Source of the DNA: Methanotrichaceae archaeon
Lineage (GTDB): Archaea > Halobacteriota > Methanosarcinia > Methanotrichales > Methanotrichaceae
Assembly: GCA_963813075.1 (NCBI GenBank)
Contig: CAWEXU010000010.1
Span: 32,001-96,000 of the forward strand
Direction of reading: 5' to 3'
Length of the DNA stretch: 64,000 nt
The notes beneath the pieces are model-generated. The model was not told where the DNA came from. It worked only from the letters and a program-made list of their open reading frames with translations, and did no database searches. Both the position numbers and the translations under genes were made by a program. The stretch's first letter is position 1, and the number at the start of each line of letters is the position of its first letter. Positions 3,177-64,000 of the stretch are shown here, in pieces.

Positions 3177-3208
3177 TCTTATCCGCTACCCAACTCTTGC
3201 TAATTCTT

Positions 3209-3370
3209 CTATCCTACTCGCCAGGCACCATCCTTCAGGTCAGGATTGGGGATCCTCCCCTGATAGCCGCACATCTTGCAGCAAATCCTCATATTCAGTC
3301 CATCAAAGGCCCTGGCTTCTGCCACATATCCGCATCTAGGGCAGTTGGTCAGGAAATGGGTTCCTGGCAT
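3209..3370 (-). CDS. Small zinc-finger protein (53 aa, below ORF-track cutoff)
   Basis: Manual translation MPGTHFLTNCPRCGYVAEARAFDGLNMRICCKMCGYQGRIPNPDLKDGAWRVG; two CxxC motifs; GGGAGGAG just upstream of ATG. Confidence 0.7.
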   Translation of the reverse strand: MPGTHFLTNCPRCGYVAEARAFDGLNMRICCKMCGYQGRIPNPDLKDGAWRVG

Positions 3371-61221: not shown

Positions 61222-61327
61222 GTTCCCAACCGCGCCGGAGTTTGGTAAGGATCTATTGTATTTGTAGGTTGCTCTGAACACATATTGAACATCTGTGGAG
61301 ATTGGAATGGTGAGTATATCTGGCAGT

Positions 61328-62399: not shown

Positions 62400-62607
62400 G
62401 TCTGAAGCGCCCAGTAATACGAAAACTCCTGTGAAGACATACGCACAATTATTAAAACTATAAAGAGTATCGACGATCCGCGCTAAATCAGCGCATAGCG
62501 ATATTAGATTAATAAAATCTCTTGAATCTGAGAAATATTTGGCAGTCAGGTCGATCCGCGAATAACGGCGTTATTTCGACAGCTGCAACAGCCCTAAAAT
62601 GGCTGCC
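62400..62607 (+). promoter_or_regulatory. Putative CRISPR leader
   Basis: AT-rich non-coding stretch directly 5' of the first repeat. Confidence 0.55.
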
Positions 62608-62928
62608 CTATCCATTTCTGAGAAGAAGTGGCCCCATTGAAACGCAACTTGAGATGTTCACACATTCCTTCTGCCTCTATCCATTTCTGAGAAGAAGTGG
62701 CCCCATTGAAACAATGGGTTGATTAATATCTACCCTTATCTATGCGGTCCTATCCATTTCTGAGAAGAAGTGGCCCCATTGAAACTATCGTTCTTATTTC
62801 CTGGGGCTGCCGATGTGACAACCCTATCCATTTCTGAGAAGTGGCCCCATTGAAACAAGAGTTCATTTCAGTTTGCATTTATCTCACCTTCACTATCCAT
62901 TTCTGAGAAGAAGTGGCCCCATTGAAAC
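62608..62928 (+). CRISPR. CRISPR array: 5 repeats CTATCCATTTCTGAGAAGAAGTGGCCCCATTGAAAC (36 nt), 4 spacers of 33/37/38/36 nt; interrupted by IS110
   Basis: Repeats start at 62608, 62677, 62750, 62824 (lacks GAA) and 62893; hairpin CCATTTCT-GAGA-AGAAGTGG; ATTGAAAC 3' handle. Confidence 0.97.
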
Positions 62929-62998
62929 GCCCATGAGCCCAGGCAGGGGCTCACACGTGACGGATGGAAAACCAGATATTTTAATCCGTCCATGTTAA

Positions 62999-63149
62999 GT
63001 CTGATATGGGCAGTGAAGGCTGACAAGTTTATGGGACACTTGATCCCGCGATTGAAACCAGCCAATACCCCTCGAATACGGGACTGCGTCTTAGAACGCG
63101 TATGGGAAATTATCCCCAATAAGGGAATGATCATCTGCCCATATCAGGC
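62999..63149 (+). ncRNA. Putative IS110 bridge RNA
   Basis: Perfect 13-bp basal stem CTGATATGGGCAG (63001-63013) / CTGCCCATATCAG (63135-63147) enclosing two stem-internal-loop domains, directly upstream of the recombinase ATG. Confidence 0.7.
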
Positions 63150-63159
63150 AGAGACATAT

Positions 63160-64000
63160 ATGAAAAAACGAAGAGAAAGAGTTTGCGGTGCAGATGTCCA
63201 TAAAGATCTGATCGTTGCCACAATAGCAGGCGACGAAGTGCCGCCGATTCGAGAGAATTTTGGGACAACAAAATCCGAACTTGATAGATTTAGAAGCTGG
63301 CTTGCAGCTAACAAATGCGAACAGGTTGCATTCGAAGCTACTGGAGTCTATTGGATCCCGATTTATGATGCTCTGAGCCGAACCATAGATACCATTGTTG
63401 CCAATCCTCTGCAGATAAAGTCCATTCCAAATGACAAATCAGATTCAAAAGATTCAAAGCATATTGCAACTCTGTGTTTGAATAATCAAATCAAGAGATC
63501 TCGGGTTTTTTGCGATGAAGACCGAGAACTCAGGAACCTAACGCGAGCCAGAGCAGGATATGTCAAGACGCGAACTCAGTTCAAGAATCGGATACACAAA
63601 TATCTCTCATCAAATGGCGTTAAACTCAGCTCTTCTATGGACGATATATTCTGCAAATCTGGAAATCATATCATAAGAGGTCTGGCTGAAGACAACCCTA
63701 CCGAAGAGATCCTAAAAGGCATACCCTGCGGAAAGATCAGGAAAAAACAAGACGAGATCAGATCAGCACTTGCCAATGAACTGAGTGATACAAATAGAAT
63801 GCTGATAAGGGATGCTCTCGAAATCATGGACAATGTCGAATCCAAAATAGAGAAGACAAGTTTTGAGGTTCTGAAAAAGATTCAAAAGAAGAGCACGGAT
63901 TTGGCTATTGTTATGTCCATCCCTGGAATCGCATTTATCTCAGGTTCAGTCATTCTGTCAGAGATCGGAGACTACAGAGATTTTCAGACCCCTGACCAAC
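63160..64000 (+). CDS. IS110 family recombinase/transposase (partial, not in ORF track)
   Basis: Manual translation MKKRRERVCGADVHKD...FEATGVYW...ANP...KSDSKDS (D-E-D-D) ... SIPGIAFISGSVILSEIGDYRDF; open to the window end. Confidence 0.95.
   Translation, partial: MKKRRERVCGADVHKDLIVATIAGDEVPPIRENFGTTKSELDRFRSWLAANKCEQVAFEATGVYWIPIYDALSRTIDTIVANPLQIKSIPNDKSDSKDSKHIATLCLNNQIKRSRVFCDEDRELRNLTRARAGYVKTRTQFKNRIHKYLSSNGVKLSSSMDDIFCKSGNHIIRGLAEDNPTEEILKGIPCGKIRKKQDEIRSALANELSDTNRMLIRDALEIMDNVESKIEKTSFEVLKKIQKKSTDLAIVMSIPGIAFISGSVILSEIGDYRDFQTPDQ

Follow-up and report, generated by a model that had tools for sequence, protein, structure and literature searches.

An IS110-family element in a Methanotrichaceae CRISPR array very probably selects its insertion site with its own bridge RNA

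The DNA analysed here is a 64,000-nt window of a Methanotrichaceae archaeon (positions 32001-96000 of contig C10 in genome G000, a metagenome-assembled genome (MAG) that is 82.8% complete with 3.4% contamination). Near its 3' end, a CRISPR array is interrupted by an insertion sequence of the IS110 family. Coordinates are those of the window unless a contig (C) or a locus (L) is named. We consider it very probable that this active-looking element picks its site with its own bridge (seek) RNA, a type of molecule described for IS621 (Durrant et al. 2024, PMC11208160; Hiraizumi et al. 2024, PMC11208158). The decisive support for the putative guides is their covariation with target and donor DNA. 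In the mechanism that we propose, an RNA of about 143 nt, encoded upstream of the transposase gene, would present in its first loop two guides that overlap at an A-rich core, while a second part (ATGGGAAA) would recognise the element's own right end in its donor form, presumably a circle. Recombination within AAA would then set the element at ATTGAAA^C (a caret marks the junction), and because many CRISPR repeats share this as their conserved 3' end, most sites available in these genomes would come from CRISPR arrays. With the recognised target lying wholly in the repeat, the variable spacer would not be required, and insertion at the repeat-spacer junction, co-oriented with the repeat, would split the array.

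The targeted array belongs to a genuine CRISPR system, as it has regular identical repeats and unique spacers, and a cas1 gene lies beside an array with the same repeat. Repeats 1-5 (62608-62928, + strand) occupy 62608-62643, 62677-62712, 62750-62785, 62824-62856 and 62893-62928, with unique spacers of 33-38 nt. The complete 36-nt repeat, CTATCC...CCCCATTGAAAC, reads CTATCCATTTCTGAGAAGAAGTGGCCCCATTGAAAC. Repeat 4 is only 33 nt long, GAA being missing inside its GAGAAGAAG stretch. The last 8 nt of repeat 5 are ATTGAAAC (62921-62928), which we take to be the portion of the repeat that becomes the 5' handle of the CRISPR RNA, and the element begins with GCCCATGAG... in the position of spacer 5. 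This 8-mer occurs eight times in the window against 1.64 expected, a number reached in none of 100 shuffles; five of the occurrences are the repeats and one is the copy in the guide loop described below. On the far side of the element, the array resumes with a 28-nt spacer, one full repeat and a truncated terminal repeat. The placement of the element directly after repeat 5, instead of spacer 5, had been read from the window by a first-pass annotation, whose coordinates were all reproduced; the continuation of the array beyond the right end is a point that it had asked to have checked. In that distal part (L001:3171-3233, that is C10:96550-96612), the last full repeat runs straight into the truncated terminal one, no spacer intervening (..ATTGAAAC^TATCCATTTC..). 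The joint may be a deletion scar, and any tie to the element is speculative.

The element is about 1.59 kb long and runs on the + strand from 62928 past the window edge at 64000 to C10:96521 (window 64521), with the same ends in three copies. Its right end reads ..TTTTCCATGGGAAAC (..CCATGGGAAAC). Comparing junctions across copies placed the left half-target and core, (C)ATTGAAA^C, at 62920-62928 (+), which is the repeat 3' end. The string GAAAC is common to the left flank and the element's right end. The right junction is GGGAAA^T in L068, L074, L097 and L098, and GGGAAA^GGATGGGG in a clade of relatives that we call clade B; the left junctions of these relatives stay ..AAAC^GCCC or ..AAAC^ACCC. 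The shared GAAAC and the variable right junctions (GGGAAA^T, GGGAAA^G) thus point to a crossover within AAA. Probably, the first base of the element is C62928, so that the element proper would be CGCCCATG...CCATGGG plus the shared core. Apart from the shared AAA, which in most copies is GAAAC, no target sequence is duplicated. A 6-bp subterminal inverted repeat, CCCATG at 62930-62935 (+) with its partner CATGGG at C10:96513-96518, is kept in all clades, and the non-coding ends measure 231 nt (left) and 42 nt (right). The motif ATATTTTAAT at 62976-62985 (+), some 20-25 nt upstream of the apparent 5' end of the RNA, is a possible archaeal TATA box that could serve as its promoter, although it is not kept in all clades.

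Domain content and alignment place the predicted transposase in the IS110 family in its broad sense, as an RNA-guided transposase. Its gene starts with an ATG at 63160 (+), leaves the window at 64000 and encodes 439 amino acids in full (C10:95160-96479), with DEDD and Tnp domains (PF01548, E 1e-21; PF02371, E 2e-25). The NCBIfam model NF033542, 'IS110 family RNA-guided transposase', scored 255 bits against a cut-off of 140. The alignment with the IS621 transposase (8wt6) is distant (E 1e-7); it matches ...NPGENESAG with ...TPRRYESGS, which contains the ES serine, and SDSKDSKHIA with TDTVDARMLA, which covers the D..D stretch. These residues are presumably catalytic. Residues 217-337 also resemble, weakly, the TIGR-Tas RNA-guided endonuclease model of NCBIfam (NF052498; 24.8 bits, where the cut-off is 100); this probably reflects a common Nop-like domain.

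The left non-coding end is predicted to fold into a structured RNA whose loop strands match both target strands and overlap at the core. Its minimum free energy (MFE) is -83.4 kcal/mol against -60.8 for shuffled sequences (z -5.0). Fold, alignment and RNA contigs together delimit a bridge RNA core of about 143 nt at 63003-63145 (+), closed by an outer stem, GATATGGGCAG / CTGCCCATATC, whose 10-11 bp (63003-63013 with 63135-63145) close over two parts. The first part is the target-binding loop (63018-63063, +), in which a closing stem GGCTG/CAGCC (63018-63022 and 63059-63063) encloses an inner hairpin GGGA..TCCC (63033-63036 and 63044-63047) and two guide strands, ACAAGTTTAT at 63023-63032 on the 5' side and GCG (63048-63050) followed by ATTGAAAC (63051-63058) on the 3' side. 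The hairpin GCGT..ACGC (63086-63099, +) forms the centre of the second, donor-binding part and is paired and invariant in 56 of 56 unique cores. The outer stem, closing stem and inner hairpin are likewise kept across these 56 cores, which represent all clades. Compensatory pairs were seen in the outer stem, where AT is replaced by GC in four sequences and GC is replaced by TA or AT, and in the closing stem, where 13 sequences have CG for TA, while most stem pairs in this alignment are invariant and so uninformative either way. An Rfam scan of 62400-64000 assigned no family, its sole two matches having E values of 0.22 and 0.38.

Contigs assembled from public sequencing runs do no more than hint at an abundance of the predicted 143-nt RNA, contigs being a form of data from which ends, strand and level are not provable. 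In two metatranscriptome runs of one study, contigs cover L001:1625-1774 (window 63004-63153) with word depths of 6522/3065 and 2511/1540, whereas the word depth over the open reading frame in the same two runs is mostly about 9-130, and a DNA run stays level at 11-37. Contigs of high word depth keep to the RNA stretch and start at window positions 63000-63008; adapter letters adjoin them there and at 63145, the two places where the outer stem ends. A joint from L001 position 1644 to 1751 recurred in three RNA runs with only 21 letters on its shorter side, and probably stems from relatives or from the assembly graph. No contigs cover L001:1325-1474 or 3200-3330, which is uninformative since arrays differ between strains.

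The two strands of the target-binding loop behave as guides would. The left-target guide, (G)ATTGAAAC at 63050-63058 (+), reads in the sense of the left flank and would therefore pair with the bottom strand; it is invariant in 32 of the 32 unique cores of its class. The right-target guide, ACAAGTTT at 63023-63030 (+), is complementary to the top strand AAA-C-TTGT, and its GTTT is equally invariant in those 32 cores. For every element, the strand corresponding to 63048-63058 was compared with the 25 nt upstream of its CATG motif, and the longest common string was recorded. A match of at least 8 nt was found in 43 out of 55 distinct guide/flank pairs, compared with 6 out of 2,008 control pairs from different guide classes. 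The elements fall into 16 guide classes, among them ATTGAAAC, CCCTAAAC, GGCTAAAAC, TTTATAAAAC, TAGTGAAAC, TAGTCAAAC, TGCGGAAAC, GTTTAAAAC, CAAAAAAC, CACAAAGA and CGCAAAGA. Weaker matches occurred in L042 (5 nt), in L057 and L135 (7 nt) and in three members of the GCGGAAAC class (5-6 nt). On the other strand, the reverse complement of the right-target guide is identical to the core and right flank for 7-9 nt in nine relatives (L006, L043, L045, L047, L049, L052, L058, L071 and L076), and in L071 the guide variant GCAAGTTT pairs off with the flank AAACTTGC. At the distal positions of this guide, 10, 4, 3 and 0 of the 32 ATTGAAAC-class cores vary, which is moderate and not the free drift expected.

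The first-pass annotation had noticed that the 8 nt flanking the insertion recur in the loop of the first hairpin, had proposed that the loop strands are overlapping guides in an order flipped relative to IS621, and had suggested looking for covariation between loop and flanks. The flank copy at 63051-63058 is there; the 5' strand predicts core and right flank in the nine relatives; both 'left' guides, that for the target and that for the donor, lie on the 3' side of their parts; and the loop varies among homologues that have other targets. An alternative is that the protein picks the site and that ATTGAAAC in the left end is a passenger, either a captured piece of repeat or one side of a stem pairing with GTTT. 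The GTTT and AAAC of the loop strands are indeed complementary and the MFE fold pairs part of them, yet one loop strand tracks its flank in 16 classes where mismatched pairs do not, the other tracks the right flank, and complementarity of the guides at the core is what the published bridge-RNA design predicts (PMC11208160, in its account of that design). We regard a passenger as hardly credible.

The donor side follows the same logic. The left-donor guide ATGGGAAA (63102-63109, +) equals the right end ..CATGGGAAA, and 15 of 17 distinct pairs of donor guide and own right end match over at least 7 nt, whereas cross-class pairs reached at most 5 nt in 190 comparisons. The donor guide shifts together with the right end through GTGAAG, GCGAAA, AGGAAT, GGTAA and GAGAAA.

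Three copies of the element are present in the genome itself, all preceded by a repeat end (CCCCATTGAAAC twice and CCCAATTGAAAC once) and followed by spacer-like DNA (28, 30 and 36 nt) and a repeat, with spacers on either side that differ per copy. Relatives were sought in 105 genomes of the order; 58 had a match at E <=1e-30, and 31 regions were fetched. Among them were 21 close full copies in eight Methanotrichaceae genomes, with 76-100% protein identity. In 12 of these, the left flank is a CRISPR repeat end; eight occupy single-copy non-CRISPR sites that carry ATTGAAAC or lie one or two mismatches away (TATTCAAAC, ATATGAAAC); and one is linked, through its upstream neighbour's right end, to the base that follows ATTGAAAC in another copy's left end. 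Copies at sites lacking the motif, which the first-pass annotation had named as evidence that would count against it, were thus seen neither among the three own copies nor among the 21 close ones, apart from the mismatched sites and the one entry into another copy's guide. Among species representatives in GTDB, 12 of 12 matches are labelled Methanothrix, Methanotrichaceae or uncultured Methanosarcinales archaeon, and the viral contigs searched contained no relative.

Another 51 loci came from a metagenome scan. When all fetched DNA was searched with a regular expression for the left end, it yielded 56 left junctions, which were not dereplicated and in which L100/L101, L105/L106, L113/L114 and L117/L142 are each likely one insertion in sibling samples (at least four such pairs). 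They comprise 32 CRISPR repeat ends, 22 other sites, one guide DNA (L129) and one junction with too little flank; in 29 of the 32 CRISPR junctions, the repeat body recurs within the locus. The diverged left ends of L109, L123, L128 and L133-L139 escaped the expression. By eye, L128, L138 and L139 lie at repeat ends, and L123 and L133-L136 do not. At least four repeat types are occupied: CTATCCATTTCTGA..GTGGCCC(C/A)ATTGAAAC and its variants, ATCAAGAGCAAGTTCCACGAAAACAAGGATTGAAAC with GTCCGAGGGCGAGTTCCACAAAAACAAGGATTGAAAC, GTTGCAGCGAACCAGAAAACCCGATAGGGATTGAAAC, and ATTGCAGAGCCTATCCCGATGAAAAGGGAATTGAAAC. Up to four copies sit within one array of genome G077. The suggestion that several repeat families are entered and their arrays split is borne out by these sites.

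Could the array copies have arisen once and spread by duplication or recombination of arrays? Repeats and insertion sequence copies invite homologous recombination, L072 and L097 have a repeat on the left and non-array DNA on the right, and spacers are shared between the two ends of contig C7. Each of the three own copies, however, has different spacers on either side, at least four repeat types are occupied in different genomes and samples, and at least eight single-copy non-array sites carry the same motif. We therefore judge a single origin very unlikely and favour repeated guided insertion. The ends of contig C7 (C7:1-400 and C7:110000-110300) carry the same four spacers with homopolymer-type differences, and the element follows the shared repeat at one end only; these duplicated ends could be strain variants or an assembly artefact. 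The end without the element was considered as an empty site and rejected, since the next spacer after the shared four differs and the pair is not clean.

Guide-encoding DNA is itself a target site, because the left-target guide has the sense of the target top strand. Three independent nested insertions into guide DNA were found: a complete one in L129, one in L096 whose right end is joined to ..CAGCCAATATCCC, and one in genome G077 (L070_2/L070_1). Each separates the two loops of the recipient RNA, and as a corollary, copies would insert into and disable each other. We also compared the element with 448 spacers taken from this genome and from the loci fetched; none matched over at least 18 nt (best, 17 nt at 88%), and there is therefore no sign of host immunisation against it.

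Several observations weigh against an RNA-guided element directed at arrays, and some of them bear on the guides themselves. Where the element sits at a CRISPR repeat, its right-target guide agrees with the DNA over no more than AAAC and a single further base at most (3-5 nt), and therefore the whole recognised target, (G)ATTGAAA^C, would lie inside the repeat. A fourth guide, for the element's left end, was not found: a comparison by eye of the 5' side of the donor region with the left end, made in either sense, gave matches that were partial and inconsistent, such as CCATGATC in the same sense in L006 and L058. No occupied site was found paired with its empty form, and no joint of right end to left end, as expected of a circle, was present among the contigs of the public runs. 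A third RNA run, from a different study, has no peak on the RNA stretch, and some of the contigs there derive from a related element on contig C8. Given the quality of the MAG and the shared-spacer ends of C7, repeat-embedded contexts could be partly mis-assembled. Other observations concern the arrays. The genome holds 119 ATTGAAAC sites, of which 93 (78%) are repeats, three are guide DNA of elements and 23 lie elsewhere (two of the repeat sites having been reassigned by eye), so that three array insertions out of three have a probability of about 0.48. In addition, 22 of the 56 junctions lie outside arrays, indicating no preference for arrays as such. Only two of the six copies in genome G035 are in arrays, both in one array of 22 GGATTGAAAC repeats, and four are at non-array sites; ATTGAAAC occurs 162 times in this genome, where the reversed control gives 28, and among the sites listed, most appear to be repeats.

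These counts are the case for a more economical account, in which the element is specific for an 8-9-mer and its link to CRISPR is a by-product of the abundance of that motif, with no evolved preference for arrays. Since repeats hold 93 of the 119 sites, the 8-9-mer alone explains the array location, and no determinant beyond the motif appears necessary for array insertion; sister clades, moreover, hit unrelated motifs under the same rule. We give this account a little less than an even chance. The earlier statement that the element homes into CRISPR arrays is supported, with one qualification: arrays hold 32 of the 56 junctions, whereas the specificity is for the 8-9-mer. Against the motif account stands the constancy of the guide. 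Its eight bases never vary within the 32-core class, and a subclade with 58% protein identity retains GAGATTGAAAC despite changes in its inner hairpin, right-target guide and donor guide, with two of its three parsed copies at repeat ends. In a midpoint-rooted FastTree tree of transposases, which was made with no clade test and serves as a hint only, ATTGAAAC classes bracket clades with other guides. The 23 non-CRISPR sites compare with about 66 expected for all sites from base composition, and the pattern agrees with a target that has been kept for long and that owes its abundance to CRISPR only.

A bolder interpretation is that the lineage is a long-standing CRISPR-array specialist, whose ancestor was already programmed for the ATTGAAAC repeat terminus and which kept this guide because arrays offer many identical, harmless and widely shared sites. 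We put this forward tentatively and rate it below the motif account; on sequence alone, CRISPR may be the evolved target or just the main reservoir of the 8-9-mer. If the lineage is such a specialist, the spacer beyond the repeat would not need to be recognised, the target being inside the repeat, and co-orientation with the repeat could allow read-through from the leader and a Cas6 cut at the upstream repeat. The cost would be one spacer per insertion, and distal spacers may be silenced, so that RNA-guided transposon and RNA-guided immunity would live in conflict or commensalism.

Within the genome, cas1 (C7:3766-4611) adjoins the C7 array, which is built of the window's repeat family, and the C17 array is flanked by cas1 fragments. 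No cas gene lies beside the window's own array, upstream of which formate dehydrogenase genes stop at 61281. A search for Cas6 (PF01881) found none, which in a genome only 82.8% complete is no evidence of absence. In genome G035, a second CRISPR array (G035:C1:2852813-2854178) has a 1.37-kb gap between regularly spaced repeats, which may hold another inserted element.

Other elements were met in the same searches. At C13:45187-45270, a gene-less element of about 85 bp, in which the first ~50 nt of a related left end are fused to a ..ACATGCGAAAA-type right end, has the flank GTGCTGAAAC and looks like a miniature inverted-repeat transposable element; a left-end fragment also lies at C31:103300-103350. 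Two genomes carry a second IS110-family element, 33% identical (L059:100-1500 and L060:128-1500), tail to tail in the right end (TTTTT^CATG..) of the L059 and L060 elements, where one guided element appears to target another's end. Clade C is represented in genome G003 (L081-L087) by at least seven copies, all at a single conserved sequence that is itself repeated, ..CTTCTGGGGCTAAAAC^TAATGGTTTTCCTAGCGCGCTC.., and resembles a host repeat of the repetitive extragenic palindromic (REP) type, and clade B copies are inserted in an imperfect palindrome, CCCCACCCTAAA^GGATGGGG. In L049, a long tandem array with a 15-16-nt unit (AGTGCAATGTCAATT) begins right at the element's right junction.

The mechanism and the kind of system are already known, and the following comparisons are drawn with selected parts of the cited reports. 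Like IS621, the element combines a recombinase with DEDD and Tnp domains and a non-coding RNA upstream of the gene (PMC11208160); in both, the loop strands, which overlap at the core, pair (here putatively) each with a different strand of the two target halves, a second region reads element ends (here, putatively, the right end), and the natural target is a multicopy repeat (REP elements for IS621). It differs from IS621 in its A-rich core (AAA, against CT), its longer protein (439 against 326-343 amino acids, with the distant similarity noted above), its archaeal host and its CRISPR repeat end as target. The long non-coding region upstream of the gene, compared with the short right end, is a feature of the IS110 group. 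In that group (IS621, ISEc21), however, the bottom-strand guide lies 5' of the top-strand guide, and the order here is reversed (PMC11208160, PMC11187229).

This reversed order is not new in itself. In IS1111-family seekRNAs, the match to the top strand lies 5' of that to the bottom strand, opposite to the IS110-type ISEc21 (Siddiquee et al. 2024, PMC11187229). With the IS1111 elements ISEc11, ISPa11, ISKpn4 and ISPst6, our element shares the guide order, the subterminal inverted repeats and the conserved repeated targets, whereas in those elements the RNA lies downstream of the gene and the proteins have 330-350 amino acids (PMC11187229). Its 6-bp inverted repeat CCCATG/CATGGG falls between the 2-3 bp of the IS110 group, IS621 included, and the 7-17 bp of IS1111 elements (PMC11208160). 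Rare exceptions to the usual layout are ISMtsp17, with an upstream non-coding region, and the archaeal ISHvo10, with both (PMC11187229).

Transposons that enter CRISPR arrays have been reported in cyanobacteria (Chacon Machado and Peters 2025, PMC11837452). These Tn7-like elements resemble ours in being small, cargo-less and recurrent in arrays, with the repeat as attachment site, and differ in using a TnsD/TniQ protein and Tn7 machinery, as that report describes, where our element would use an RNA guide and a DEDD recombinase. Another archaeal IS110-family element with a CRISPR-repeat-like sequence is ISC1229 of Sulfolobus (PMC10883916); there, sites for Cbp1, a CRISPR-repeat-binding protein, lie in the 3' flank, and neither a guide RNA nor an array insertion is described in the relevant part of that report. 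Natural targets given for bridge and seek RNAs in 2024 are REP elements, attC sites, transposon ends and insertion sequence genes. In a 2026 preprint on bridge RNA diversity, section 2.4 names neither CRISPR targets nor guide order, and part of another preprint of 2026, on 'half-match' recombination, lends plausibility to an insertion in which the right half pairs only little. Full-text literature searches, beyond which supplements may hold relevant target lists, returned no IS110, bridge-RNA or seekRNA element that targets CRISPR repeats, and the array-targeting transposons found there were protein-guided Tn7 relatives only. What is new is the CRISPR repeat terminus as a target, over several repeat types; an archaeal clade with a mixed IS110/IS1111 layout; and the self-targeting of guide DNA.

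The finding links RNA-guided transposition with RNA-guided immunity and offers one route by which arrays may be split and eroded in methanogens. With at least 16 naturally reprogrammed guides in one archaeal clade, pairing rules become readable, and the recombinase appears to need very little pairing with the right half-target. The hybrid layout, which joins an IS110-like upstream RNA and long protein to an IS1111-like guide order and subterminal repeats, bears on how the two groups diverged.

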